Of a stretch of 64,000 nucleotides of DNA, positions 1,651-45,615 are shown piece by piece. The DNA is from Thermoanaerobaculia bacterium. Its GTDB lineage: Bacteria > Acidobacteriota > Thermoanaerobaculia > Multivoradales > Multivoraceae. Every line of letters begins with the position of its first letter. Position 1 is the stretch's first letter. The stretch is from contig OZ220688.1 in NCBI GenBank assembly GCA_965116445.1, positions 1,675,789 to 1,739,788 on the forward strand, read 5' to 3'. The translations under genes were made by a program, and so were the position numbers. The notes under the pieces were generated by a model that was not told where the DNA came from, searched no databases, and saw only the letters and a program-made list of their open reading frames with translations.

Positions 1651-2488
1651 AGAACCCCTTGCCGGTCTTGCGTCCCAGGTGTCCCGCCTGGACCAACTGC
1701 TTCAGCAACGTCGGCGGTGCGAAGCGCGTTTCCCGGTACTCGTCAAACATGATGTTGGCGACCGAGTACATCGTGTCCAGTCCGATGAAATCGGAGAGCG
1801 TGAACGGCCCCATCGGGTAGCCGCAGCCCAGCTTCATCGCCGTGTCGATGTCCTCCATGCTGCCGATGCCGTTCTCGTAGGCGCGGACCGCATCCAGCAG
1901 GTACGGAATCAGCAGCCGGTTGACGATGAACCCGGAGTTGTCCTTGCAGGCAACCGGCGTCTTGCCGACCCGCTGGGCGAGATTCCAGCAGGCGTCGTAG
2001 GCCGCGTCCGACGTCATCAGCGTGCGGACGACCTCGACCAGCCGCATCACAGGCACCGGGTTGAAGAAGTGAAGCCCGACGAACCGGTCCGGCCGCGCCG
2101 TCGAAGCGGCGAGTTGGGTGAGGGTCAGCGAGGACGTGTTGCTGGCGAAGATCGTGTTCTCACCGACGATGTCGTCCAGCGAAACGAACAGCTCGCGCTT
2201 CGTCTCCAGGTCCTCGACGATCGCCTCGACGACCAGGTCGGAACCGGCGAGATCCGCGAGATCGACCGTACCGCTCAGGTTCGAGATCGCCCGGTCGTGC
2301 TCCTCGGCGTCGATACGCCGCTTCTCCAGACTCTTGGCCAGGGATCTGCGCACCGCGCCGAGCCCCGCATCGAGCGCTTCCTGGTTGATCTCCCTGACCG
2401 TGACCGGGATGCCGGCCCGTGAACAGATCTCCGCGATGCCCCGGCCCATGAGGCCGCAGCCGACGATGCCTACGCGTTCCACTTCCAT
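1637..2488 (-). CDS. 3-hydroxybutyryl-CoA / 3-hydroxyacyl-CoA dehydrogenase
   Basis: 283 aa; N-terminal NAD-binding GIVGCGLMGRGIA; FNPVPVMRLVEV and SGFIVNRLL motifs of the 3-hydroxyacyl-CoA dehydrogenase family. Confidence 0.8.
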   Translation of the reverse strand: MEVERVGIVGCGLMGRGIAEICSRAGIPVTVREINQEALDAGLGAVRRSLAKSLEKRRIDAEEHDRAISNLSGTVDLADLAGSDLVVEAIVEDLETKRELFVSLDDIVGENTIFASNTSSLTLTQLAASTARPDRFVGLHFFNPVPVMRLVEVVRTLMTSDAAYDACWNLAQRVGKTPVACKDNSGFIVNRLLIPYLLDAVRAYENGIGSMEDIDTAMKLGCGYPMGPFTLSDFIGLDTMYSVANIMFDEYRETRFAPPTLLKQLVQAGHLGRKTGKGFFDYR

Positions 2489-2509
2489 CGAACTCTCTCG
2501 CTTTCTCGT

Positions 2510-2971
2510 CTATGTACTCGACGAATCGACCGGTCCGGTTCCGGAGCGGGACTCTAGCAACGGTTCGAGCACCTCGATCGTCCGCTCCCCCGCTTCGCCG
2601 CCGACCTCCAACCGGACCTCCATCGCCGGCAAGCGGTACGGCAGGCGGTCCGCCCACTCCACGACCTTGACACCGTCCCCGGCCAACAGTTCCTCCAACC
2701 CGATTCCCTCGACCTCCTCCGGCTGAAGCCGGTAGAGGTCGACGTGCACCAGGCGCACCGGGCCGCGGTCGTACTCATGAACCAGTGTGTAGGTCGGCGA
2801 CTGGATCAGGGTCGCGTCAAGCCCCAGGCCCTCGGCGATGCCCTGGGTGAGAACCGTCTTGCCGGAGCCCAGGTCGCCGAACAGAAGCGCCGTACCGCCC
2901 GGCGTCAACCGCTCGGCGAGCTCGACTCCCAACCTGCGGGTCTCGCCGGCGCTCCCGGTCCTGACGATCAT
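2510..2971 (-). CDS. tsaE: tRNA threonylcarbamoyladenosine biosynthesis protein TsaE
   Basis: 153 aa with P-loop GDLGSGKTVLTQGIAEGLG; its start overlaps the nnr stop (ATGA), matching the usual yjeF-yjeE pairing. Confidence 0.8.
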   Translation of the reverse strand: MIVRTGSAGETRRLGVELAERLTPGGTALLFGDLGSGKTVLTQGIAEGLGLDATLIQSPTYTLVHEYDRGPVRLVHVDLYRLQPEEVEGIGLEELLAGDGVKVVEWADRLPYRLPAMEVRLEVGGEAGERTIEVLEPLLESRSGTGPVDSSST

Positions 2972-4494
2972 TCCGGCTCTAGCGACTTGAACGCCGGTCC
3001 CAGCTCGTCAACCAGGTCTGAAGCGGCCATCGATGTCTCGCCCCAGGTGGCGGCGGCCAGATCGCCCGCAAGTCCGTGGACGTAGACGCCCATCCTCGCC
3101 GCGGAAGGCGGCTCCAGTCCCTGGGCCAGCAGCGCCGCAATGACACCGGTCAGCACGTCGCCGCTGCCTCCCGAAGCCATTCCCGGATTGCCGGTCGGGT
3201 TCACCCAGGTGCCGAGAACGGGATCGGAGATCAGCGTCTGGCGGCCCTTGAGGACGACCACCGCTCCGGTCTCCTGAGCTGCCCGCCGCGCGTGCTCCCA
3301 TCGGGCCCTCACTACGGCATCCGTGGCGACACCCAGCAGACGGGCCAGTTCGCCGGGATGAGGCGTGATCACGAGGTCGGCGTGACGCACCCGAAGCGCC
3401 CGGGCATCACCGGCGAAAGCGGAGATGCCGTCCGCATCGAGGACGATCGGGGCCACACTTCGAGCCACGACCTGCCGGGCAAGAACGCGAGCACCGTCGC
3501 CCAGGCCGAGGCCCGGGCCCAGCGCCAACGCACCCGGCGATGCGCGCTCGCCGATCGCCTGCAGCAACGGTTCGGCGGCTTCCCGTGACCAACCGTCCCG
3601 ATCCGGGGGCAGGCCCAGAGTCATCGATTCGAGCGAGCCGGCGTCGACGACGAGGGCGAGATGTTCGGGCACCGCGGCCGTCACCAGCCCGGCGCCGCCC
3701 CGGACGGCGGCGCGCGTTGCCAGGACCACGGCCCCCGTGTAGCCGCTCCTGCCGCCGGCGACGACGACGTGACCGAACGTGCCCTTGTGCCCGTCGAGCG
3801 GACGCGCTCCGAGTCGACCGACCAGATCCCGCCGCCGCGACCGGTAGAGAGCCTCCGGCCCCGGCGGCGGTTCGGGCAACGGCACCCCAAGATCGCCGAT
3901 CCGAAGCCGTCCGCAGGCGTCCGACGAGGGCGCCAGCACGGTCGCGACCTTGGGGAAGCCCAGAGCCACCGTGAGGTCAGCGACGACGTGCGGCCCTGGA
4001 GGCACGGACGTGGAGGCGTCGAGCCCGGTCGGCAGATCGACCGAGACCAGCGGAACGTCTCCGCTCCGCTTGCCCAGCCAGTCGACCCACCGGGCCACCG
4101 GACCCTCCACCGGCCGATTGAGCCCCGTGCCGAGCAGCGCGTCGACCCACAGGTCGACCGGGGCGCCCACCGCGTCGCACTCGGCGGGCTCGGGAACCAC
4201 CGCCGTCGACAGGCCGAGCTGTTCGCAGGACACGAACTGCTGCGTCGCTTCGGGGCTGAGCCTGTCGAGCGATCCGGCGATGAAGGCGGTCGCCTCGTAC
4301 CCCCGGGTCGTCAGATCGCGCAGCAGGGCAAGTCCGTCGCCGCCGTTGTTGCCCCGGCCGCAGGCGATGGCGACACGGCGCGCACGCGGATAGCACTCCG
4401 CGATCGCGTCGGCGGTGGCGCGAGCCGCATTCTCCATCAGCACCAGCGCCGGCACGCTCAGGTCGTCGATCACCGCGGCTTCGGCCGACCGCAT
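2968..4494 (-). CDS. nnr: Bifunctional NAD(P)H-hydrate repair enzyme Nnr (epimerase + ADP-dependent dehydratase)
   Basis: YjeF-N and YjeF-C (carbohydrate kinase-like) domains: GRGNNGGDGLAL, GHKGTFGHVVVAGG, GGSGDVLTG. Start set at the internal ATG 4494 (MRSAEAAVIDD); the ORF upstream of it is low complexity. Confidence 0.8.
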   Translation of the reverse strand: MRSAEAAVIDDLSVPALVLMENAARATADAIAECYPRARRVAIACGRGNNGGDGLALLRDLTTRGYEATAFIAGSLDRLSPEATQQFVSCEQLGLSTAVVPEPAECDAVGAPVDLWVDALLGTGLNRPVEGPVARWVDWLGKRSGDVPLVSVDLPTGLDASTSVPPGPHVVADLTVALGFPKVATVLAPSSDACGRLRIGDLGVPLPEPPPGPEALYRSRRRDLVGRLGARPLDGHKGTFGHVVVAGGRSGYTGAVVLATRAAVRGGAGLVTAAVPEHLALVVDAGSLESMTLGLPPDRDGWSREAAEPLLQAIGERASPGALALGPGLGLGDGARVLARQVVARSVAPIVLDADGISAFAGDARALRVRHADLVITPHPGELARLLGVATDAVVRARWEHARRAAQETGAVVVLKGRQTLISDPVLGTWVNPTGNPGMASGGSGDVLTGVIAALLAQGLEPPSAARMGVYVHGLAGDLAAATWGETSMAASDLVDELGPAFKSLEPE

Positions 4495-4514
4495 CTCGTC
4501 TGTCGTGACGACTC

Positions 4515-5255
4515 TCAACGCCGGCCCTCCTTCTCCGATGGATGCTCCGACCACGACGCAACGACTTCGGCCGTACGCGGGCACATGGATCGCAAATCGG
4601 GCCGGCGTTCGAGGGCATCCCGGAATCGGACCAGATCCTCCACCGTGTCGAGATCCTCTTCTTCCGGAAGCAGGGCCACTTCCAGCCCCAGTTCGCGGCA
4701 GCGCAATTGCGTCTCGCGCAACACCGACGGCGTGCTCCACGCCAGTCCATCGAACAGGCGACGGTTCACAGCCTTCCGGCGCAGTGCGATCAGGTAGTAG
4801 CCGCCGTCCCGGGCCGGGCCGAGGACCGCGTCGTTCCCGCGCGCCAGAAGATCGAACGCCGTCTCCACCCGCGCCGTATCGAGGTCGGGCTGATCGCTGC
4901 CGACCGCCGCGACGTAGCCGGCACGCGACGCGGCCCATTCCAGCCCGCGGAAGAGCCGCTCGCCCAGGTCGCGACCGCGCTGCCGCCGCCAGGGCACGCC
5001 GGCAGGCGCCAGGTCGACCGGCGAATCACCGCCCCGCGACAGCAACCACATCAGAATCAGCTCCCAACGCCCGGCATCGAGCCGCCAACTCAGGTCCGCA
5101 ACCAGGGCGGCGTGCAGCGAAGCGGCCTGGCCGGCAGTCAACCCGTCCGGCGCGATCAGCCGGGTTTTCACCTGGCCAGGAACCGGCTCCTTGGCGAAGA
5201 GCAGCAGCCGCCGGACCGAAGCCTCGGCGGGCCGCGGACCCGGCGCTCCCCGGAC
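4515..5255 (-). CDS. TIGR04282/DUF2064-type glycosyltransferase-like protein (start uncertain; GTG near 5216-5255)
   Basis: RLLLFAKEPVPGQVKTRL ... VLGPARDGGYYLIAL motifs typical of the DUF2064/CofC-like family. The N-terminal extension of the ORF is low-complexity Arg/Gly and was not treated as coding. Confidence 0.5.
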   Translation of the reverse strand, partial: VRGAPGPRPAEASVRRLLLFAKEPVPGQVKTRLIAPDGLTAGQAASLHAALVADLSWRLDAGRWELILMWLLSRGGDSPVDLAPAGVPWRRQRGRDLGERLFRGLEWAASRAGYVAAVGSDQPDLDTARVETAFDLLARGNDAVLGPARDGGYYLIALRRKAVNRRLFDGLAWSTPSVLRETQLRCRELGLEVALLPEEEDLDTVEDLVRFRDALERRPDLRSMCPRTAEVVASWSEHPSEKEGRR

Positions 5256-14576: not shown

Positions 14577-15350
14577 GTGGTCAGCAGCGGCCAGATCGAA
14601 GAGCCCTCCGACCGATCCACAGCAACCCGCCCCCCGGCATTCCCTGCCGCGACCGAGGACGACGAGATGGCAGCGAACACAGAAGCCCACACCCTCGATC
14701 CCGAGACGAGGCTCGACAGGATCGAGGCAAACCTGGAACACGCATCCCGACTGATGATGGAGTACCGAAAGGACCAGCGGGAGACCGATCGGCAACTGAA
14801 GGAGACCGATCGGCAACTGAAGGAGGATGCCCGGCGGGCGCAGGAGGACACCCGGCGGATGCAGGAGGACACCCGACGGTTGAAGAAGGAAGGGAAGAAG
14901 ACCGATAGACGACTCCGGAGAGCCGAGAACCTGTTCACCACGCAGTGGGGCAAGCTGATGGAGAGCCTGGTCAGGGGCGACCTCATCCGGCTGCTCAAAG
15001 AACGCCGAATCGAAGTCGAAGGCACCGCGAGGGAAACCGAGAAGGCCCGAAACGGGGAGCACTTCGAGATCGACATCATCGCGATCAACGGCAGTGAGCT
15101 CGTCGCCGTCGAGGTCAAGACCACGCTTCGCTCGGAGGGAGTCACTCACTTCCTCGGGAAACTCGAGCGCTTCCTGGAGTGGTGGCCCGAGTTCCAGGGC
15201 CGCAGGATCTACGGGGCAGTTGCGTATCTCCAGAGCAGCGACTCAGTGGTCAAGTATGCCCAGCGGAGGGGCCTCTTCGTCATTCGAGCCACCGGCAGCA
15301 GCGCCAGCATCGTGAACCCCGACGACTTCGAGCCGCGCATCTTCTCCTGA
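14577..15350 (+). CDS. Hypothetical coiled-coil protein with a C-terminal PD-(D/E)xK (restriction-endonuclease-like) fold; alternative start at ATG 14667
   Basis: N-terminal heptad-rich coiled coil with tandem peptide repeats (ETDRQLK x2, QEDTRRM/L x2). The C-terminus carries E...D...E-V-K spacing (GEHFEIDIIAINGSELVAVEVKT). Lower GC than its neighbours. Confidence 0.55.
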   Translation: MVSSGQIEEPSDRSTATRPPAFPAATEDDEMAANTEAHTLDPETRLDRIEANLEHASRLMMEYRKDQRETDRQLKETDRQLKEDARRAQEDTRRMQEDTRRLKKEGKKTDRRLRRAENLFTTQWGKLMESLVRGDLIRLLKERRIEVEGTARETEKARNGEHFEIDIIAINGSELVAVEVKTTLRSEGVTHFLGKLERFLEWWPEFQGRRIYGAVAYLQSSDSVVKYAQRRGLFVIRATGSSASIVNPDDFEPRIFS

Positions 15351-16526: not shown

Positions 16527-17864
16527 TCAATCGCCGGCCTGCAGGTTCGCCACTGCCTCCGAAGCTGTCTCCGGCCTGTCGAACCAGTACTCATCGAGCA
16601 GCGGCGCGATATCGAAGCTGACGATCTCCTGGAACCACTCGTCGTAGTCGGGCGACCCTCCGGAGGGCGGGTCGCAGAAATAGCTGTGGCCAATGCGGAA
16701 ACCGGCTCCAAGATCCGAGTCTCCGGCGATCGCCTCGTTTAAAGCACTGAGCCGCTCGCGAATGCGCCCGCGGACTGGCGCCGGGACCCCTTGGCCCTCC
16801 AGGTGACGCTGGAACTGAGGTTGCCTGAACGCCGGCTCCACCGTGAAGAACGCGAATCGCCGGCGCAGCGCGTAGTCGACCAGCGCCAACGAGCGGTCCG
16901 CCGTGTTCATCGTGCCGATCAGGTGGAGGTTCTCCGGCACATGGAACCGCTCGGCACCGTCTCGCGGGTAGGCGAGCCGCACCGCCCACTCCTCCGACCG
17001 CTTGTCCGCCTCGATCAGCATCAGCAACTCGCCGAAGATGCGGCTCAGGTTGCCTCGGTTGATCTCGTCGATCAACAGAACATGGGGCCGGTCGCCGTCC
17101 TCCCGCGCCCGCTCGCAGAAGTCGAGAAAAGGCCCATCGCGGAGCACGAAGCCGCCTTCTTCCGTGGGTCGGTAGCCGCGGACGAAATCCTCGTAGCCGT
17201 AGGACTGATGGAACTGCACCGCCTCGATGCGCTCCATCGACCGCTCTGCCGCCAGGACCCATGCCAGCCGCTGCGCGATGAACGTCTTCCCGGTGCCCGG
17301 GGGACCTTGGAGGACGAGGTTCTTCTTGCGCTTGAGCTGGGAGAGGAGCCGCTCGATGTCGGCGCGATCGAGAAAGACCTGACGTGCCGCATCCTCAAGG
17401 GTGAACAGACCCGACTCCAGATACAGCGGGCTCGGAACCGACGCCGCTGCGAGTTGAGGGGTTGACACCTCTCCGTCTGATTCGGCCCTCGGTTTCGCAG
17501 ATCGAACCAGTCTTCGCGTTGGTCGCGCTTCTACGTTGGCAGCGCTCCTGTAGGTACTGAGGAGTTCGGTGTCAATCTGTCCGGGATCTCGATCCAGAAG
17601 ATCCAAGCCTTCCTGGGTGATTCGATACACCTCCTTCCTTACCTTCCGTAGTAGGCCGGCACCTCCTAAATCGACTAGCGCCCAGGCCACGGTGTTGTGG
17701 AACACCGGCGTTGGTCCGCGAGCCGGCATCTCACTCAGGTCCTGAGTTGACAGGCCCATCGCCGAAGCGACGCTGCTTCGAATCTCCGAACTCGATACCT
17801 CAACGCCATCCCCCAGGGCCTGAAGGACTGGCAGCCTCACACTGGGGCGATCAGGTACCGTCAT
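16527..17864 (-). CDS. mcrB: McrB-type GTPase/AAA+ restriction subunit with an N-terminal Mrr_N-like winged-helix DNA-binding domain
   Basis: AAA+ motifs LQGPPGTGKTF and LLIDEINRGNLSRIFGELLMLIE (McrB signature). The N-terminal 90 aa (LPVLQAL...GLSTQDL...PVFHNTVAWALVDLGGAGLL) match the Mrr_N wHTH that is also present in the Mrr gene at 44743. Confidence 0.85.
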   Translation of the reverse strand: MTVPDRPSVRLPVLQALGDGVEVSSSEIRSSVASAMGLSTQDLSEMPARGPTPVFHNTVAWALVDLGGAGLLRKVRKEVYRITQEGLDLLDRDPGQIDTELLSTYRSAANVEARPTRRLVRSAKPRAESDGEVSTPQLAAASVPSPLYLESGLFTLEDAARQVFLDRADIERLLSQLKRKKNLVLQGPPGTGKTFIAQRLAWVLAAERSMERIEAVQFHQSYGYEDFVRGYRPTEEGGFVLRDGPFLDFCERAREDGDRPHVLLIDEINRGNLSRIFGELLMLIEADKRSEEWAVRLAYPRDGAERFHVPENLHLIGTMNTADRSLALVDYALRRRFAFFTVEPAFRQPQFQRHLEGQGVPAPVRGRIRERLSALNEAIAGDSDLGAGFRIGHSYFCDPPSGGSPDYDEWFQEIVSFDIAPLLDEYWFDRPETASEAVANLQAGD

Positions 17865-32216: not shown

Positions 32217-32250
32217 CGTCCGCACCGCGAGGGAGAGACGGCGTAACTCC

Positions 32251-32310
32251 GGTTTCCGCACGAATCGATCGGAACTCCGCGAGATCGGCTCGGGTTTCCG
32301 CAAGACTTGA

Positions 32311-32326
<16 letters not shown>
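32251..32326. promoter_or_regulatory. Three direct copies of GGTTTCCGCA(A/C)GA at 32251, 32293 and 32314 (spacing 42 and 21 bp) in the clpC-bamA intergenic region (the third overlaps the last clpC codons)
   Basis: Exact 10-mer GGTTTCCGCA repeated three times on the plus strand. The 21-bp phasing sits upstream of the bamA start at 32216. Confidence 0.4.
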
Positions 32327-38351: not shown

Positions 38352-39836
<1,485 letters not shown>

Positions 39837-39849
39837 AGACGGAGGACGC

Positions 39850-39857
39850 TTAGCAAT
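39850..39857. repeat. Target-site duplication, left copy (TTAGCAAT)
   Basis: An 8-bp direct repeat identical to 43289..43296; it abuts the left terminal inverted repeat. Confidence 0.7.
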
Positions 39858-39891
39858 GGGGATTATATACGAGAGTGCCGAAGCCGAACGG

Positions 39892-40089
39892 CTACCGGCG
39901 CACGCTCTTCGGTGACTTGACGTAGTTGACCTTCACCTCTCCGGCCAGCGCATCGGCGAGCACGTCAAAGCTGGCGTTGATCCGCAGGTCTTCCCGCAAC
40001 TCCGCTGCGGACGGCTGGTAGCTGGGGTGAACGATGTCTACGACAGGGCGTGTCGGCCGCTTGTCTCTCTCTACTTGCTTTCTAGCCAC
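39892..40089 (-). CDS. Small hypothetical protein (65 aa) overlapping the 3' end of the methyltransferase-HNH gene
   Basis: ORF MARKQVERDKRPTRPVVDIVHPSYQPSAAELREDLRINASFDVLADALAGEVKVNYV; no recognisable motif. Lies inside the element next to IRL. Confidence 0.3.
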   Translation of the reverse strand: MARKQVERDKRPTRPVVDIVHPSYQPSAAELREDLRINASFDVLADALAGEVKVNYVKSPKSVRR

Positions 40090-41333
40090 GCTAGCTTCTC
40101 CCTCAGTTCCGAGATCATGTTTGCCTTGGCGATGCTGTCTTCACTGGTGCCCTTCGTGAGGTTGCACGGACGGCAGAGCAGTTGAAGATTGTCGGGTTCG
40201 TCTCCGCCACCTTCGGCTTGCGGCACGATGTGGTCAACGTCCATCAGCCGAATATCCGTGAGCGTGGAGCACATCGCGCACCGGCCTTCTTGCTCGCCGA
40301 AGAGCAGGTGCTTGTGGCTGGTCGGCTTCGGCGGCGCTTGCGACTCCGTGACGCTCTCTGTGGTCCAATACTGGATGTCGTGAAGTACGGTGCCCATGAA
40401 CGAGACTTCGTTCGTCAGCCGCTCCCTCACGAGCTTGTAGGCCATGTCCGATATGTCCATGCCGATCCACTGGCGGTTCAGTCTCTCCGCTGCTACACAG
40501 GCGGTCGCGCAGCCACAGAAGGGGTCTAGCACGATGTCGCCCTCGTTCGAGGATGCCCGGATGATCCGTTCCAAGAGCGCTAGCGGCTTCTGGGTCGGAT
40601 AGCCAACGTTCTCGGCAGCCTGCGAGTTCAGGAAGTTGATATCGAACACGTCTGTATGTCGGTTGCCCTGGGTCGTGTCCACAGGTTTCACGATGTCGAA
40701 GTCGTTGCGGTCGATCTTCCCGTCGGCTTCCTTGCGGGCAAGAACCGCCTCGTCGTAGATGTACAGGTAGCGCTGGCCACCCATCCGCTTCGTGTTGTAC
40801 CCCGCTCGGACGAGTTGCTGTTTCCGTGGCGACAACTCGGAATCGTAGGTCGCGTGGTAGTGGAACTTCGTAGAGCGCGAGTAGAACAGGAGCGTGTCGT
40901 GCGCCCGCAGGAACTTCTTGGCCCGCGAGTTCGCCACTTTCTTGTACGACCACACGATCTCGTTGCGGAACTGAATCCGGCCGAAGATCACGTCCATCAG
41001 CGTCTTGAGGTAATGGCTGGCGGTCGGATCGCAGTGGAGGTACACGCTCGCCGTGGGCTTCATCACGCGCCGCAGTTCGAGCAGCCGCACCGCCATGTAG
41101 ATCAGGTACGCCTTCATGCCCTTGGAGTGCGCGGTGCCGGCCGCGTCGATGGTCTGGTACAGCGCCGGGTGATGCTCCGCGAGTTCGCCGTGCCACGCGA
41201 GGTCTACGTCGTCCAGCGTCCAAGTGTCCTTGAACGCCGCGCCCGCAGCCTTGCTGCCTATCGGAGCGGCGAAGTTCCGGTCCTTGTTGAACGGCGGATC
41301 GAGGTAGACGAGATCTACGCATCCGTCCGCCAT
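40071..41333 (-). CDS. DNA methyltransferase (N6-adenine/N4-cytosine, beta-class) fused to a C-terminal HNH endonuclease domain; the annotated ATG is internal. The conserved N-terminus continues upstream through the repeat tract.
   Basis: DPPF (motif IV) at the N-terminus and VLDPFCGCATACVAA (motif I, FxGxG). C-terminal HNH motif CAMC...DVDHIVPQAEGGGDEPDNLQLLCRPCN. The in-frame sequence 5' of ATG 41333 encodes ...YGPQDWVRAIHTGDNLNILRG, the conserved MTase N-terminal segment. Confidence 0.75.
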   Translation of the reverse strand: MADGCVDLVYLDPPFNKDRNFAAPIGSKAAGAAFKDTWTLDDVDLAWHGELAEHHPALYQTIDAAGTAHSKGMKAYLIYMAVRLLELRRVMKPTASVYLHCDPTASHYLKTLMDVIFGRIQFRNEIVWSYKKVANSRAKKFLRAHDTLLFYSRSTKFHYHATYDSELSPRKQQLVRAGYNTKRMGGQRYLYIYDEAVLARKEADGKIDRNDFDIVKPVDTTQGNRHTDVFDINFLNSQAAENVGYPTQKPLALLERIIRASSNEGDIVLDPFCGCATACVAAERLNRQWIGMDISDMAYKLVRERLTNEVSFMGTVLHDIQYWTTESVTESQAPPKPTSHKHLLFGEQEGRCAMCSTLTDIRLMDVDHIVPQAEGGGDEPDNLQLLCRPCNLTKGTSEDSIAKANMISELREKLAWLESK

Positions 41334-41488
41334 CCCGCGCAGGATATTGAGGTTGTCGCCGGTGTGGATCGCCCGAACCCAATCCTGCGGTCCGTATCTT
41401 GCAGGTGTAATTCCGCCCCCGGCCCCCGGCCCCCGGCCCCCGGCCCCCGGCCCCCGGCCCCCGGCCCCCGGCCCCCGGCCCCCGTCAT
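41315..41488 (-). other. Repeat-containing leader ORF (58 codons, MTGAGGRGPGAGGRGPGAGGRGPGAELHLQ...), out of frame with the methyltransferase
   Basis: ATG 41488..41486 overlaps the transposase TGA (ATGA), with GAGG upstream. It reads through the heptamer tract and stops at 41315, in a different frame (+2) from the MTase. Confidence 0.4.
41414..41483. repeat. Heptanucleotide simple-sequence repeat: (GGCCCCC)x9 perfect (41421..41483) plus one imperfect unit (41414..41420); (GGGGGCC)n on the coding strand
   Basis: Directly visible in the sequence. The 63-bp perfect tract is open in all three frames as Gly/Arg/Pro/Ala. Confidence 0.9.
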
Positions 41489-42519
41489 GCCGTCGCCTCG
41501 CGCGCGCCTGACGCCAAGCCGTTGTCGGCGATCAGGTCGCGGTAGCGGAGGCGCTTGCCCTCCATGTCTTCGGCGAAGCGGTCCAGTTGCTCCGCAGTGT
41601 CGAACTCGCGGACGTTCTGCCGCCAGCCGAACTCGTCCACATACCGCTGCAACTGCTTCGGGCTGAGCTTGTGGAACGTCCCCTTGTGCGCCCGCTTGAG
41701 CATCGACCACAGGGACTCTATGCCGTTCGTGTGGATCCTGCCGTCAACGTACTCGCCGACCGAGTGCTTGACCGTGCCCCGCTCGTAGTCCGTCAGGCCC
41801 CCGTAGGCGCCGGCGTCGTCCGTGTAGACGGTGGAGCCGGGTTCGACGTGCTCGCGGACGAAGGACTGTAGCGTCTCGCCGTCCGTGGAGTGAACGACCT
41901 TGGCGGCTACCTGCTTGGTCTTCCGGTCCTTGACGCCGACGACGGCGGTCTTGCCAGCCGTGCCTCGTCCGGTGAGCTGCTTGCGCTTCTTGGCGTGCAT
42001 GTTCTTCCGCTTCCCGCCGAAGTACGTCTCGTCCGCTTCTACCGGGCCGGGGAACAGGACGGTCGGCCCGTTTGCCTCAAACGCGGCGCGGAGACGCTGC
42101 GCCATGAACCACGCGGTCTTCTGGGTAACGCCCAGGTCGCGGTGCAGCTTCATGCTCGACACACTCTTGAGGCTGGTCGTGAGCAGGAACGTGGCGAGCA
42201 TCCATTTCTGGAAGCCGATCTTCGAGCCTTCCATGACGGTGCCGGTCTTCGCGCTGAACCGCTGGTAGCAGCCCTTCTCGCGGCAGCGGAACGGCATCGT
42301 CTTGTGCTTCGCGCCGGTCTGGACGTTGTGCGATCCACAGGCCGGGCAGGTCGGCCCGTCGGGCCAGCGCCGCTTGACGTACCACGCCTCGGCTGCCGCG
42401 TCGTCCGGGAACATCCGCATCACCTCTACCAGAGTGATGCCCTCCCGGTGCGCCTTGCCCGGTGCCTTGTGCATCGTCGCCATGCACAGAACCTTACAGG
42501 AGAGTGCCGGTGAAGTCAA
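41485..42519 (-). CDS. IS1595 family transposase
   Basis: MHKAPGKAHREGITLVEVMRMFPDDAAAEAWYVKRRWPDGPTCPACGSHNV is the N-terminal zinc-ribbon/HTH typical of IS1595/ISXO2-like transposases, followed by a DDE-type core. The start may be the ATG at 42483. Confidence 0.8.
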   Translation of the reverse strand: MTSPALSCKVLCMATMHKAPGKAHREGITLVEVMRMFPDDAAAEAWYVKRRWPDGPTCPACGSHNVQTGAKHKTMPFRCREKGCYQRFSAKTGTVMEGSKIGFQKWMLATFLLTTSLKSVSSMKLHRDLGVTQKTAWFMAQRLRAAFEANGPTVLFPGPVEADETYFGGKRKNMHAKKRKQLTGRGTAGKTAVVGVKDRKTKQVAAKVVHSTDGETLQSFVREHVEPGSTVYTDDAGAYGGLTDYERGTVKHSVGEYVDGRIHTNGIESLWSMLKRAHKGTFHKLSPKQLQRYVDEFGWRQNVREFDTAEQLDRFAEDMEGKRLRYRDLIADNGLASGAREATA

Positions 42520-42597
42520 GCGACCCAGGGTGGCCGCGAGTACAATGGCTACGAATCGGGGGTCGAGACAGCCCCCACGACAAGGGAGACAAGAAGA

Positions 42598-42887
42598 TGA
42601 CTGAACCGCTGAACGGAGAGCCGCGAAAGTCAGGCACTCAGCCCGGCAACAAGGAGCCTCTGCCGAGACTCAAATCCTCAGTTCGGATCGCCGTCACCTA
42701 CTTCGCGGCTGGCTACCTGTTCGGAGGAAGTCTGTGGTTGGTCTACCTCGAACATACCGGCACAGTCGAGACCGCCACAAAGGATCTGTTCCTCTACACC
42801 GCACCTGTCGCTACGGGTATCCTCACCTACTGGTTCGGGACACGGACTGCGCAGAAGAGCCACGAGCAGGAAGGCGGGAACGGTTAG
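42598..42887 (+). CDS. Small hypothetical membrane protein (2 TM) carried by the element
   Basis: MTEPLNGEPRKSG... with two hydrophobic helices (IAVTYFAAGYLFGGSLWLVYL; LFLYTAPVATGILTYWFG). Low GC. Confidence 0.35.
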
Positions 42888-42953
42888 TACGCCACCGCCA
42901 ATCATGACGGCTGACCCGATCTCATCCACCCAGTCACGTTTCGCGGGCATCGC

Positions 42954-43157
42954 TCACCGCCGCTCCGCTGCCCTGGCCGGTTCCTTGTCGTGTAGGAACC
43001 CCGGCTCGAAGCGCTGGCGTTCCTGCATCAGGTCTTCGAGGTCTTGTTCGATCTCGTCGAGGACGTGCAGCGCTCGGCGCCGGTCGTGTCGGGCTTCGGC
43101 GATCTCCTGGTCCAGCGCGTGCTGGCGTTCACGGTCTCGGCTTCTCAAGCGTCGCAT
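42954..43157 (-). CDS. Small hypothetical charged/coiled protein (67 aa) carried by the element
   Basis: ORF MRRLRSRDRERQHALDQEIAEARHDRRRALHVLDEIEQDLEDLMQERQRFEPGF; vaguely DUF465-like. Weak evidence. Confidence 0.25.
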   Translation of the reverse strand: MRRLRSRDRERQHALDQEIAEARHDRRRALHVLDEIEQDLEDLMQERQRFEPGFLHDKEPARAAERR

Positions 43158-43288
43158 CGGGGATTCTCCCAGAGGTTGTGGTTCTAGCCGTCAATCATAC
43201 CACCGCTTGTAGAGTCAGGTGGGAAGTAGCACGTCCCGCAAAGAGTTGTCTAGCCCTGTTAGGTTCGGCACTCTCGTATATAATCCCC

Positions 43289-43296
43289 TTAGCAAT
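43289..43296. repeat. Target-site duplication, right copy (TTAGCAAT); its last two bases plus the following G form the ATG of the downstream gene
   Basis: Identical to 39850..39857. Confidence 0.7.
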
Positions 43297-44626
43297 GTCC
43301 AACCCTGGCACCCGGACGCAAGCACCGGAAACAGAGCGGGCCTACATCGTGCAACGCGAAGACAATCGAATCTTCTTCACGGAGCGCGTCGATCCCAAGG
43401 CACACGGGCAGTTCATGTGGTGTCTGCACGACTGCCTCGAGAAGGGCTACGAGGACGTCTTTCTGGACCTGTCGCAATGTGAAGCGGCATTTCCGAACGG
43501 TGTGCTGCCGCTGATCGCCAGCATCGACAACCTTCGGCGCGAACACAAGGAGGTGTCGGTGACCCTTCCTGCAAGCGAGTACATTCAACGGCTTTTCCTC
43601 AACACGAATTGGGCCCACCTCCTGGAGCCCGATCGCTATGCGCCAAGCGAAACGTCCCACCCACGTCACGTTCCGGCGAGACGGTTCAACACTGCCGAAC
43701 ACCAACACCGGCTTGTCGGAAAGACACTCAACGTCCTCTTGGGCGGGCTCCCGTCCCTCCAGCGAGACGACCTCTCTGCTCTCGAGTGGTCCATCAACGA
43801 AATCACCGACAACGTTCTGACTCACGCCGACTGCGACCTCGGCGGGATCCTGCAGGTCAGCACTTTCGAGAATGCCGGCAAGGTGGCCGTGGGCGTCACG
43901 GACTCAGGCCGTGGCATCCGCGAATCCCTCCGGGAGAGCCACCGGGAACTGACGGACGACGCCGACGCGATCTACAAGGCTCTCGAGGCGGGCGTTACCC
44001 GGCATTCCGATATCGGCCAAGGCAATGGTATGGCCGGCGCGCTCCGGATCGCCATGATGTCGGGCGGCTCAATCGAGATCACGTCTGGTCGAGCCCAGGT
44101 CAGTTACCGGGACGGGCGGTCGACCACCTTCAGGCGCAGCCGGCGGCAGACCTTCCACGGCACCTTCGTCTACTTCGACATCGATCTAGCCACCCGCTTC
44201 GACCTCTCCGAGGCCCTCGACTTCGGAGGCGGACCTCACCGCCCAGTAGACATAGTGGAGGCACTCTACGAAACAGACGACGGAAGAGCCCTCGCCCTTC
44301 ACCTTCGGGACGAGGAGGTAGGATTCGGGTCCCGAATGGCCGGAAGACAGATACGTACCAAGGCTCTGAACCTGCTGGCCGCAGAGCCGCACAAGCCTCT
44401 TCTCCTGGACTGGGACGGCGTGCCCCTGGTCTCAAGCAGTTTCGCCGACGAGCTTGTCGGCAAACTGTTCGCAACACTCGGCCCACTTACCTTCAGTCTT
44501 CGAGTGCGGAACACCGGAATGCGTCCCGTCGTCCACGGGTTGATCGACAAGGCCATCATGCAACGCGCGGGCCAAACGCTCGCCCGAGCCCGGGAGGAGA
44601 GCGATGCCCCATCCAAGAGTGACTGA
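43295..44626 (+). CDS. GHKL/HATPase_c-family ATP-binding protein with STAS-like flanking domains (C-terminal DUF4325-like)
   Basis: N-box EITDNVLTHA, G1 VTDSGRGI and G2 GQGNGMAGALR motifs of Bergerat-fold ATPases (RsbW/SpoIIAB-like). C-terminal LLLDWDGVPLVSSSFADELVGKL resembles STAS/DUF4325. Lower GC than the flanks. Confidence 0.6.
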   Translation: MSNPGTRTQAPETERAYIVQREDNRIFFTERVDPKAHGQFMWCLHDCLEKGYEDVFLDLSQCEAAFPNGVLPLIASIDNLRREHKEVSVTLPASEYIQRLFLNTNWAHLLEPDRYAPSETSHPRHVPARRFNTAEHQHRLVGKTLNVLLGGLPSLQRDDLSALEWSINEITDNVLTHADCDLGGILQVSTFENAGKVAVGVTDSGRGIRESLRESHRELTDDADAIYKALEAGVTRHSDIGQGNGMAGALRIAMMSGGSIEITSGRAQVSYRDGRSTTFRRSRRQTFHGTFVYFDIDLATRFDLSEALDFGGGPHRPVDIVEALYETDDGRALALHLRDEEVGFGSRMAGRQIRTKALNLLAAEPHKPLLLDWDGVPLVSSSFADELVGKLFATLGPLTFSLRVRNTGMRPVVHGLIDKAIMQRAGQTLARAREESDAPSKSD

Positions 44627-44742: not shown

Positions 44743-45615
44743 TCACAACGAGGCCCTGACATCGAAGCGGAGAGTGTCTCGTCGGGAGTCCGCTTGGTGG
44801 TCGAAGCCAAGGGAGCAACCACCTCGAGTGAAGCTGGCCGTCGTAACAAAGACACCCTTAGTGGTTCCGGCCGCATCGATTGCGCCTCCGAAGTTGCGCA
44901 GGTCAGACCCGCCCACCGACTTCCCTTCGGCAAACTTCTTGGCTTGGACATACACCGCGTCCAGCCCCAGAGCGTCTTCACGAATCTTGCCGTCGATGCC
45001 GCCGTCGCCCGAGCCCCCGGTAACCTCACCACGGTCCGGGTTTCCGCCTCCATAGCCCAAGGCGATCAGGAGGTCCACGACTACGCGCTCGAAGAAGGCC
45101 GGGTCCTCCTGACGGAGCCGATCGAGGATCTCCACCTCGAGCGCTCCGCTCAACTCAGCCACAGCCGCCTCGAGTCTCTCCTCGGGCGGCTCCTCCACTG
45201 GGGAACGAGTCCCTGCTGCGGCCTCATCGCCGCCGTCGTCTGTCGGGACCGTTGCCTTGGCTCCTCGCCGCGAACTCTGAGCCTTCCAGTCCTTGTACTG
45301 CTGGTCCGCGTTGAGAAAGACAACGTCAACCCGTGAGCCGGCAACCAGGATTCCTCGCCCCTTCTCCGTCAGGCCGTGGTAGCCGCGGCGACTGCCAGCT
45401 ACGAGTCCCGCTCCCTTGAGGTGAGACAGGCTCCAGCTCAGGCGATTGTGGAAGACGGGCTGCCGTCCATTGGCCATCATGACGCTTCGGTCCTTCGTGC
45501 TCAGGCCAGTCGCCGCGGCGACCCGCTCCCGGATCTTGGCCAAGGGAAGTTCCTCGCAGTCAACCAGCGACTCCAGTACCGGCTGCATCAAGTTCGAGTA
45601 ATCCGGAACGGTCAT
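44743..45615 (-). CDS. mrr: Mrr-like Type IV restriction endonuclease (Mrr_N wHTH + Mrr_cat PD-(D/E)xK), possibly C-terminally shortened
   Basis: N-terminus: QPVLESL...GLSTKD...PVFHNRLSWSLSHLKGAGL. Catalytic core: GGSGDGGIDGKIREDALGLDAVYVQAKKF...KGVFVTTASFT, very close to E. coli Mrr. The ORF ends about 20 aa earlier than typical Mrr proteins. Confidence 0.75.
   Translation of the reverse strand: MTVPDYSNLMQPVLESLVDCEELPLAKIRERVAAATGLSTKDRSVMMANGRQPVFHNRLSWSLSHLKGAGLVAGSRRGYHGLTEKGRGILVAGSRVDVVFLNADQQYKDWKAQSSRRGAKATVPTDDGGDEAAAGTRSPVEEPPEERLEAAVAELSGALEVEILDRLRQEDPAFFERVVVDLLIALGYGGGNPDRGEVTGGSGDGGIDGKIREDALGLDAVYVQAKKFAEGKSVGGSDLRNFGGAIDAAGTTKGVFVTTASFTRGGCSLGFDHQADSRRDTLRFDVRASL

Follow-up and report, generated by a model that had tools for sequence, protein, structure and literature searches.

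Background

Classical insertion sequences (ISs) such as IS1, IS2 and IS10 can part a gene from its expression signals or supply it with an outward promoter, and in mobile restriction-modification units both modification and restriction genes lie within units bounded by inverted repeats (IRs) and target-site duplications (TSDs). ISs that carry passenger genes, termed 'transporter ISs', are also established, and one publication (PMC3129680) cites for them the work of Siguier, Gagnevin and Chandler on the IS1595 family, which appeared in 2009. In one member of this family, ISApl4, the IRs begin with GGGG and the duplications are 8 bp long and A/T-rich (PMC12561309). In the phase-variable mod alleles of Type III systems, the ATG is followed at once by a repeat, and the recognition domain in the middle of the gene varies while both ends are conserved (PMC10123105). 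This report concerns an IS1595-family element, with a repeat-preceded methyltransferase gene as cargo, that lies within a 64,000-nucleotide stretch of contig OZ220688.1 from a Thermoanaerobaculia bacterium (the whole stretch is termed here the window), where it separates the lysyl-tRNA synthetase gene lysS from a downstream gene encoding a GHKL-ATPase/STAS-like protein.

The element shares with the described IS1595 transporter ISs a DDE_Tnp_IS1595 transposase, IRs that begin with GGGG, A/T-rich 8-bp duplications and passengers inside the IRs; it differs from them in the cargo of its clade, most of which is made up of genes for DNA methyltransferases and restriction enzymes situated where the transposase frame stops. 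Unlike mobile restriction-modification units, it is one genuine IS that encodes a transposase of its own, and restriction-type and modification domains are joined in one polypeptide under what appears to be a repeat switch. Like the mod genes of phasevarions (modA of Haemophilus influenzae and modP of Actinobacillus pleuropneumoniae), the methyltransferase gene has, right behind its start, a repeat with a unit length not divisible by 3, apparent ON and OFF alleles that differ in unit number alone, a seemingly swapped central domain and a related methyltransferase fold. Unlike those genes, it encodes a shorter, beta-class, Type II-like protein with an HNH domain and has no res gene; the repeats of its family are GC-rich hepta- or octanucleotide units that differ between close relatives; its host has a high-GC genome of ~4.9 Mb known from metagenomes only, and is not a small-genome pathogen; and it is the cargo of a transposon, with its start overlapping the transposase stop. 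As in the effects known for IS1, IS2 and IS10, the insertion has struck the 5' control region and left the gene itself intact, and an outward -10-like hexamer lies in the IR; its position is unusually exact (the AT of the TSD plus a G form the start codon), and this hexamer has no detectable -35 partner.

The insertion itself is ordinary, the element being one more representative of an IS family already known, with passengers. In the full-text literature, coverage of which was partial, no description was found of the combination seen here--a transposase-coupled start, a hypervariable repeat and a methyltransferase-HNH protein with swappable domains, carried as transposon cargo, with GC-rich 7-8-nt units that vary between sister elements, in a large high-GC genome.

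Results

The element and its ends

The element spans positions 39858-43288 of the window and, measured IR to IR, is 3431 bp long. The terminal IR farther from the transposase start (39858-39882, + strand) reads GGGGATTATATACGAGAGTGCCGAA, and that at the transposase-proximal end (43264-43288, - strand) is the exact reverse complement of GGGGATTATATACGAGAGTGCCGAA, so that all 25 positions match. On either side lies an 8-bp duplication, TTAGCAAT, at 39850-39857 and 43289-43296, which likewise agrees at 8 of 8 positions. A previous reading, made from the sequence alone (termed here the sequence-only reading), had claimed the same IRs, duplication and length; a direct search, a mismatch scan and shuffled controls agree with it, inasmuch as no IR copy with three or fewer mismatches occurs in the 64-kb window beyond the two ends, and none arose in 100 dinucleotide-preserving shuffles. 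Also present as claimed is TATATAAT at 43277-43284 within the right IR. The base-composition figures of the sequence-only reading did not stand: in place of about 55% GC within the element against about 70% in the flanks, the element has 63.0% against a window mean of 67.9%, a modest contrast, with 67.1% in the 10 kb to the left and 62.7% in the two genes to the right (GHKL and Mrr).

Within the element, a full-length IS1595-family DDE transposase of 332 aa is encoded at 41485-42483 (-). Its matches to Pfam DDE_Tnp_IS1595 (PF12762; 3.5e-43, 147.7 bits, cut-off 27) and to NCBIfam transpos_IS1595 (NF033547; 1e-57, 195.5 bits, cut-off 75) lie well above the cut-offs and confirm the family named in the sequence-only reading. 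Zn_ribbon_IS1595 (PF12760) scores 25.2 bits against a cut-off of 25.4, with a CPAC...CREKGC motif visible; for the transposase homologue of two related loci (L089 and L090; related loci are designated here by L numbers and their proteins by P numbers) a zinc-ribbon match was recorded without a mark. The element is a structurally intact IS1595-family transposon carrying passengers, that is, a transporter IS.

The insertion site

To the left of the element, lysS (38352-39836, +; Pfam tRNA-synt_2, 1.8e-90) encodes a class II lysyl-tRNA synthetase, ends with the stop TAG at 39834-39836, and is unaltered in its coding sequence by the insertion. It is followed by a GGAGGA Shine-Dalgarno sequence at 39841-39846 (+), formerly that of the GHKL-ATPase/STAS-like gene, which now lies to the right of the element at 43295-44626 (+; Pfam HATPase_c plus STAS-like DUF4325). 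The last two bases of the right TSD are the AT of this gene's start codon and the next base is its G. Hence 3439 bp (the element plus one TSD copy) now lie between the gene on the one hand and its Shine-Dalgarno sequence and lysS on the other.

Two relatives, L092 and L093, preserve the uninterrupted arrangement. Their GHKL/STAS proteins are 77% and 74% identical to that of the window, their flanks are mostly 75-85% identical to it in DNA, and both have the gene order phosphoribosyltransferase, purine-nucleoside phosphorylase, lysS, GHKL/STAS, without the element or its cargo. The sites read TAG-TCAAGGAGAACCCCGAGCA-ATG and TAG-GGCCAAGAGGACCTGAACC-ATG, with 19 nt between the lysS stop and the ATG and with AGGAG/AGAGGA equivalents of the GGAGGA; deleting 39858-43296 from the window gives TAG-AGACGGAGGACGCTTAGCA-ATG, which has the same architecture. 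The empty site reconstructed in the sequence-only reading (lysS stop, GGAGGA, ATG) therefore matches natural sites, and these, together with ten GHKL/STAS homologues (435-453 aa) that align from Met1, uphold its view that the element has entered precisely at the junction of Shine-Dalgarno sequence and ATG, leaving the gene its ATG and an intact reading frame at the loss of its Shine-Dalgarno sequence. A 37-mer of the reconstructed empty site has no match in Joint Genome Institute (JGI) metagenome contigs.

An exact look-up with the GHKL/STAS protein returned one contig, L081, which is 100% identical to the window and so gives no independent repeat count; exact-protein look-ups for LysS and for the 420-aa methyltransferase product described below returned no record. 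Because the GHKL/STAS frame is intact and the IR and TSD are perfect, the insertion is suggested to be recent.

Relatives and mobility of the clade

A transposase scan of one genome per GTDB species confirmed 588 relatives, the best 80 of which (51-68% identity) were examined. These 80 all come from metagenome-assembled genomes, mostly of Acidobacteriota, Alphaproteobacteria and Gammaproteobacteria; the transposase of the element itself is no more than 43% identical to any plasmid-borne IS1595 transposase in PLSDB. In related loci the transposase is flanked left and right by termini of the form GGG(G/A)ATTATATAC, and the pattern for the clade is GGGGATTATATAC; presumably these termini resemble the consensus (ggnnatTAT) of the ISNwi1 subgroup of ISfinder. 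Paired termini together with a perfect 8-bp TSD were found in 46 of the 80, in elements of 1342-9898 bp (median 2796), which bears out the 8-bp duplication that the sequence-only reading expected of IS1595 elements. Taken together, 52 TSDs (the window's included) are 77% A+T, against 41% in their 2-kb flanks, with A or T at position 2 in 51 and at position 7 in 49--a pattern that TTAGCAAT fits. It is on these 46 relatives, with their paired termini, perfect TSDs and varied sizes, that the conclusion rests that the clade is mobile and carries variable cargo.

Closer relatives were located through homologues of the cargo methyltransferase. L083 has the identical 25-bp IR and the TSD TTTGCGTC and lies beside cas3; L084-L087, from four samples, have the TSD TTGTCAAT and split a TonB-dependent receptor gene; and L088 is a closely related unit with the TSD CTTGATTG. 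The IRs of all of these differ from that of the window by at most two mismatches, and each unit carries the transposase together with a methyltransferase-HNH gene. Thus the predicted mobile unit of IR plus transposase exists at three other sites in public metagenomes, each with its own perfect TSD; IR and TSD are reproduced at other copies of the transposase, contrary to the outcome that would have refuted the sequence-only reading. In two further loci, L089 and L090, the interior of the IR is different and the TSDs are AAGATTTA and TTCACATG.

Some details of these copies may be recorded here. The L083 copy (2371-5018) is situated between an RNase T gene and the cas3/cse2 genes of a type I-E CRISPR locus. 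The sister element at 3863-6522 of L084 (also in L085-L087) carries a cargo methyltransferase that is 95% identical in protein sequence, and at this insertion the gene caller fused a Plug domain to the transposase, giving a 508-aa product.

A repeat tract between start codon and methyltransferase

Downstream of the transposase, on the same coding strand, a beta-class N6/N4 methyltransferase with a C-terminal HNH domain occupies 40071-41414 (-), a 447-aa frame that is open from a simple-sequence repeat to the stop. The repeat is a perfect array of ten 7-nt units, (CGGGGGC)x10 on the coding strand and (GCCCCCG)x10 on the forward strand, at 41415-41484 (Tandem Repeats Finder, 100% perfect). It directly follows an ATGA at 41485-41488, in which a start codon (41488-41486) overlaps the transposase stop TGA (41487-41485), so that the order on the coding strand is ATGA(CGGGGGC)10GGAATT. 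From the ATG at 41488 to GGAATT, a conserved sequence, there are 74 nt; because 74 mod 3 = 2, the frame that begins at this ATG is not that of the enzyme and closes at 41315 after 57 codons (OFF). By the same arithmetic, 10 units place the enzyme out of frame and 8 or 11 place it in frame. The methyltransferase frame is open throughout the tract, with its first in-frame start at ATG 41333. What the sequence-only reading had counted as a passenger open reading frame (ORF), a 'repeat leader', is accordingly no gene; it is the tract that lies between the ATGA start and the methyltransferase-HNH frame. The 64-kb window contains no other perfect array of short period. Imperfect tandem repeats occur elsewhere in it, with units of 21 nt at 14780-14890 and of 42 nt at 32247-32326.

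Corresponding tracts in the relatives hold the same position and differ in sequence. Two are in frame (ON): that of L006, with ATGA and (GACGCGG)x9, and that of L083, with GTGA and (AGCGCGA)x6.6, whose called protein P0003 begins MSAKREARSAKREARS. Out of frame (OFF) are L088, with (GCGGGAC)x8.6, L084, with (CGACCGGG)x4, L086 and L087, with (CGACCGGG)x5, L089, with (CGACCGGG)x2, and L091, with ATG and (CCGACCG)x32; in L090 a tract of at least 15 GCGGGAC units is interrupted by a scaffold gap. The start-stop overlap (ATGA or GTGA) is also found in L006, L083 and L084-L089. In every case the unit length is not a multiple of 3 and the tract lies between a start codon and GGAATT. Since the peptides that the different units encode are unrelated among copies, the tract is conserved as DNA and not as protein.

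Differences in unit number are seen within a single insertion of the sister element. Over 2817 bp, L084 and L087--the same insertion in two samples--show no substitutions and differ by one 8-nt unit, and over 6215 bp L084 and L086 show two substitutions and again differ by one 8-nt unit. For the window copy itself, the one other assembly that spans the tract is identical, and L082, a short-read contig that matches the transposase exactly, breaks off where the tract begins, ~30 nt beyond the transposase gene. On these comparisons the tract is far more mutable than its surroundings, and its position is conserved while its sequence is not.

L091 differs in its setting. At 3666-3920 of this locus, P0009, a methyltransferase-HNH protein of the same clade, is encoded behind a 227-nt repeat, with a TIR-domain gene upstream and with neither an IS1595 transposase nor an IR nearby; a repeat without the transposon implies that the putative switch travels with the methylase gene and not only with the IS.

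Two other explanations of the tract were considered and rejected: that it encodes a functional linker rich in Gly, Arg and Pro, inasmuch as different units give unrelated peptides and the majority of copies are not in frame; and that transposase and methyltransferase form a fusion protein, inasmuch as a TGA stands between the two in every case and only certain unit numbers bring their frames into register. In some relatives the two genes do share a frame: in L014, L017 and L027 the methyltransferase starts at a GTG two codons past the TGA, and in L086, L087 and L089 a single TGA stands between the two.

The methyltransferase-HNH protein

Pfam N6_N4_Mtase (8.6e-46) and HNH (1.8e-11) confirm the methyltransferase-HNH passenger proposed in the sequence-only reading. 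The gene as called from ATG 41333 spans 40071-41333 (-) and encodes 420 aa. DPPF occupies residues 39-42 of the 447-aa frame (12-15 in the shorter, 420-aa product), and DPFCGCAT comes at about residue 297, so that motif IV (DPPY/F) precedes motif I (FxGxG), the order that marks the beta class; the HNH motifs (CxxC, DH, N, CxxC) are intact. An AlphaFold2 model of the full frame (predicted local distance difference test, pLDDT, 83.5; predicted template-modelling score, pTM, 0.81) has as its top Foldseek matches M.BceJIV, CcrM, M.RsrI and MboIIA (E ~1e-15, target template-modelling scores up to 0.82), with the Type III Mod subunits EcoP15I Mod and Mbo45V Mod also among the matches. The best PADLOC models are those of Type II methyltransferases, with a lower score for Type III, and this label conveys nothing more. 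As the element contains no res gene, as Type II models fit best and as the protein ends in an HNH domain, it is by these sequence features not a Type III Mod; the modification that it would make is probably N6-methyladenine (m6A).

The family has more than 8000 members at E<=1e-20. Its N-terminus usually lies ~30 residues before DPPF and includes a conserved NRT-WTGDNL-LRGM segment; gene calls with a start just 11 residues ahead of DPPF come mainly from the closest, repeat-bearing relatives. The product of ATG 41333 accordingly lacks ~27 conserved N-terminal residues, and in the model the part before Met28 forms a helix (9-12), a strand (15-18) and a second helix (21-27). Judging from this model, the truncated product is probably defective.

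Alignment of P0001 with P0003-P0009 separates the protein into regions of very different conservation: the first ~125 residues and the C-terminal ~180 (241-420) are 65-100% identical per 20-column block, and the central part (~125-240) is 0-42% identical. We read this as a swapping of central recognition domains among close homologues. No copy has an internal stop in the methyltransferase body, for which the GC content at third codon positions (GC3) is 0.83. Viral contigs searched both with the IR and with the methyltransferase gave no match, and a scan of JGI metagenome proteins with the methyltransferase found only relatives of at most 40% identity across the full-length match, apart from one 75-residue fragment of 61%, and these give no information on the repeat.

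Core, cargo positions and small genes

Comparison of the window copy with compact relatives gives the layout of the element, which, to go by these sequences, consists of a core (the transposase with its upstream region, and a 65-aa gene) plus two cargo positions.

The conserved region upstream of the transposase (42484-42520, -) comprises TTGACT, 17 nt, TAAGGT, 7 nt and the ATG; in compact relatives (2.6-2.7 kb) the transposase-proximal end reads IR, ~4 nt and then this same series. The 17-nt spacer (42495-42509) holds CGGCACTCTC, which repeats the IR's inner portion in inverted orientation and co-varies with the IR in L008 and L010; this IR-like copy before the transposase ATG is also present at the left ends of L008, L010, L083, L084 and L088. 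The TTGACT/TAAGGT block may act as a promoter, with another binding site for the transposase lying across it; the inverted copy may be such a site, with an autoregulatory role, or a hairpin.

Next to the distal IR lies the gene for the 65-aa protein (39892-40089, -; GC3 0.76), with an invariant HPSYQPSAAELREDLR motif. Homologous matches (tblastn) occur in 13 of the 80 loci, including cargo-free minimal elements of 1.4-1.5 kb, and in 24 aligned database homologues HPSYQPSAAELREDLR is invariant. The gene is always found beside this IR. Because it is present in minimal elements without cargo, this ORF belongs, on comparative grounds, to the core as a conserved element gene and is not a passenger. 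Its AlphaFold2 model is weak (pLDDT 67.6, pTM 0.37).

The first cargo position (slot A) begins at the transposase stop codon and holds the methyltransferase-HNH gene; the second (slot B) is bounded by the IR on one side and by the upstream region of the transposase on the other and, in the window, holds a 743-bp module (42521-43263) unique to this copy. The module is missing from L083, L084-L088 and L089, and the closest relatives have ~4 nt in its place. It contains a gene with a good Shine-Dalgarno sequence for a 96-aa protein with two transmembrane segments (42597-42887, +), of which 164 representative homologues were found at E<=1e-3 (the best at 81%), and a 67-aa charged ORF (42954-43157, -), a candidate gene only, without homologues among the related loci that were fetched. 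The 65-aa, 67-aa and two-transmembrane proteins have no family match in Pfam, NCBIfam or PADLOC. Thus the five passenger ORFs of the sequence-only reading were an over-count: the methyltransferase-HNH gene stands as a passenger, the repeat leader is a simple-sequence tract, and the 65-aa ORF belongs to the core.

Minimal relatives (1342-1536 bp) consist of the transposase alone or, mostly, of the transposase plus a homologue of the small ORF. With passengers inside its IRs that these relatives lack, the window copy fits, by this comparison of sequences, the definition of a transporter IS. A methyltransferase gene directly 3' of the transposase was found in 26 of the 80 loci, often joined to it through an ATGA or TGATG overlap. 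A Pfam census of the 83 cargo ORFs in 48 clean elements gave methyltransferases (N6_N4_Mtase 13, N6_Mtase 3, C5 methylase 2, MT-A70 1), nucleases (HNH 6, BglII 2, EcoO109I 1, GIY-YIG 2) and, for the remainder, nested transposases and a few others. In the cargo of one related element (L057, 11728-11847) there is a tandem repeat, (CGCCTTCCCT)x12, that is apparently intergenic.

The displaced gene and its surroundings

At the right junction the GHKL/STAS gene retains TTAGCA-ATG, with IR sequence further upstream in which there is no purine-rich stretch. The right IR holds an outward-facing TATAAT (43279-43284), 4 nt short of the IR tip and with 10 nt between it and the ATG. A consensus scan of 39700-43500 found no -35/-10 pair (promoter-like sites 0) and terminator-like matches in the element at background level, and the RNA fold at the right junction is unremarkable (z = 0.89). 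From the arrangement of the junction, the balance tips somewhat towards the insertion having silenced this gene or strongly reduced its expression; at a guess, a leaderless transcript starting within the IR might still cover it. At the left junction, the orphaned Shine-Dalgarno sequence and a junction ATG (39856-39858) open a 19-codon ORF, MGIIYESAEAERLPAHALR* (39856-39915, +), which continues into the element in antisense orientation relative to the genes there.

For the GHKL/STAS protein, PADLOC gives a match (3.6e-36) to the N-terminal portion of its DrmA model. A DISARM assignment was rejected, the match spanning only positions 138-396 of a 1750-position model. Two Mrr-type, methyl-directed (Type IV) restriction genes are present in the window, at 44743-45615 (-) and ~17364-17864 (-). 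The former (PADLOC mREase_IV, 6.5e-57) is the next gene past GHKL/STAS, and L092 lacks it in the corresponding syntenic interval; the region that separates GHKL/STAS from the riboflavin genes is therefore variable. It may be speculated that an m6A methylase turning ON beside Mrr would be toxic to its own cell, perhaps favouring the OFF state.

Discussion

The preferred reading--a transporter-IS insertion plus a repeat-gated methylase cargo--is assigned a probability of roughly 0.8. Under it, A/T-rich targets are rare in a 68%-GC genome and the element hit one of them, the spacer between Shine-Dalgarno sequence and ATG; that an IS1595 transporter IS entered this spacer owing to its own target preference is almost certain. 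The GHKL/STAS gene would formerly have been co-transcribed with lysS, and the insertion has taken away its ribosome-binding site and shifted lysS 3.4 kb off. Within the element, the methyltransferase-HNH gene would be co-transcribed with the transposase and translationally coupled to it, which is probable because its ATG overlaps the transposase stop. Slipped-strand gain or loss of 7-nt units would then move the frame, such that 10 units lead to closure 57 codons on (OFF) and 8 or 11 units to the full-length enzyme (ON).

The several parts of this reading differ in strength. It is quite probable, to go by the frames and overlaps, that the methyltransferase-HNH gene is a repeat-gated contingency gene, now OFF, that is probably coupled to the transposase in transcription and translation; and we infer from the tracts that switching would occur within the population. 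The chances are about even that this IS1595 lineage, seen so far in metagenome assemblies alone (many of them labelled marine or host-associated), spreads a portable, phase-variable epigenetic or defence module in which stop-coupled translation, a 7-8-nt repeat gate and a swapped recognition domain are combined. That the enzyme is itself a self-contained, switchable restriction-modification or epigenetic module is a tentative guess.

Several observations weigh against this reading. The comparison of repeat numbers is one of consensus assemblies only. Seven of the nine scorable copies are OFF, which fits a three-state switch (two thirds expected) and also fits decay; L089, with two units only, is possibly locked OFF; and a number of the methyltransferase genes carried by more distant elements seem to be split. 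Met 41333 precedes the start of the Pfam domain, so that a partly active product of the internal start is possible. Only three contigs match the transposase exactly, and the window holds a single copy of the element. The effect on GHKL/STAS expression is read from the sequence only. Finally, we know of no methylation motif, nuclease activity or partner gene for the methyltransferase-HNH architecture.

Some of these observations point towards the explanation that the repeat is neutral, slippage-prone DNA in decaying cargo, the methyltransferase gene being either a pseudogene or expressed constitutively from ATG 41333. The preponderance of out-of-frame copies, the reduction of L089 to two units, the frequent splitting of methyltransferase cargo in more distant elements and the Pfam boundary after Met 41333 would all be expected of such a gene. 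Yet the gene body is intact in every copy, with a GC3 of 0.83 and conserved N- and C-terminal parts; the tract falls invariably between the start codon and GGAATT, with a unit length that 3 does not divide in any copy; two alleles, those of L006 and L083, are in frame; and the segment that an internal-start product would lose is conserved in the family and modelled as structured. Neutral decay is therefore considered unlikely. Another explanation keeps the enzyme active and has it serve the transposon, methylating the ends or the upstream region and thereby timing transposition, much as Dam methylation does for IS10 and Tn5. Coupling of methyltransferase translation to the transposase through the ATGA overlap would suit this role, as would the recurrence across the clade of a methyltransferase right after the transposase. 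But copies with identical IRs (the window, L083 and L088) encode unrelated central domains (P0001, P0003 and P0004), and enzymes with unrelated recognition domains on identical IRs cannot all recognise one site in the ends; moreover, minimal elements of 1.3-1.5 kb do without a methyltransferase, and other members carry complete restriction-modification gene types (BglII, EcoO109I). Such self-service is very unlikely.

The remaining alternatives concern the insertion rather than the cargo. If the main effect of the element were on its neighbour, it would act as a mobile promoter whose outward TATAAT drives a leaderless GHKL/STAS transcript, so that the gene is re-wired. The hexamer is perfect, lies near the IR tip and the ATG, and is conserved at both ends across the clade; this last property, however, is equally that of a transposase-end sequence, for which a promoter role is unnecessary. 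Since there is no acceptable -35 and the scan returned no promoter-like site, and since an A/T-rich target preference accounts for the site and the RNA structure at the junction is ordinary, this role is judged decidedly improbable. That the segment is instead an island brought in by a phage, an integrase or recombination, its IR and TSD being coincidental, would fit a GC content slightly below that of its surroundings. Against this, a 25/25 IR and an 8/8 TSD, with zero expected by chance, recur as the same ends with new TSDs elsewhere; the boundaries coincide with the uninterrupted site in relatives; and neither an integrase nor an adjacent tRNA was found near the element, nor any match among viral contigs. 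This origin is hardly credible.

Conclusions

The locus provides a clean example of an insertion whose empty site can be recovered and that probably silences a conserved GHKL/STAS gene. The close relatives of its cargo--near-identical scaffolds with different recognition domains--would form a natural set for mapping the determinants of specificity. If the switch works, it bears on phage defence and on the methylation-based binning of metagenomes, and methylase genes that appear 'frameshifted' in assemblies could be read as regulated rather than broken. More generally, if the reading is true, repeat-driven phase variation of methylases, known mainly from small-genome pathogens, also occurs in environmental or symbiotic bacteria with large, high-GC genomes, and could spread horizontally as transposon cargo. 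Methylation phase variation would then not be confined to host-adapted pathogens, and would instead be a transferable trait in uncultured bacteria.

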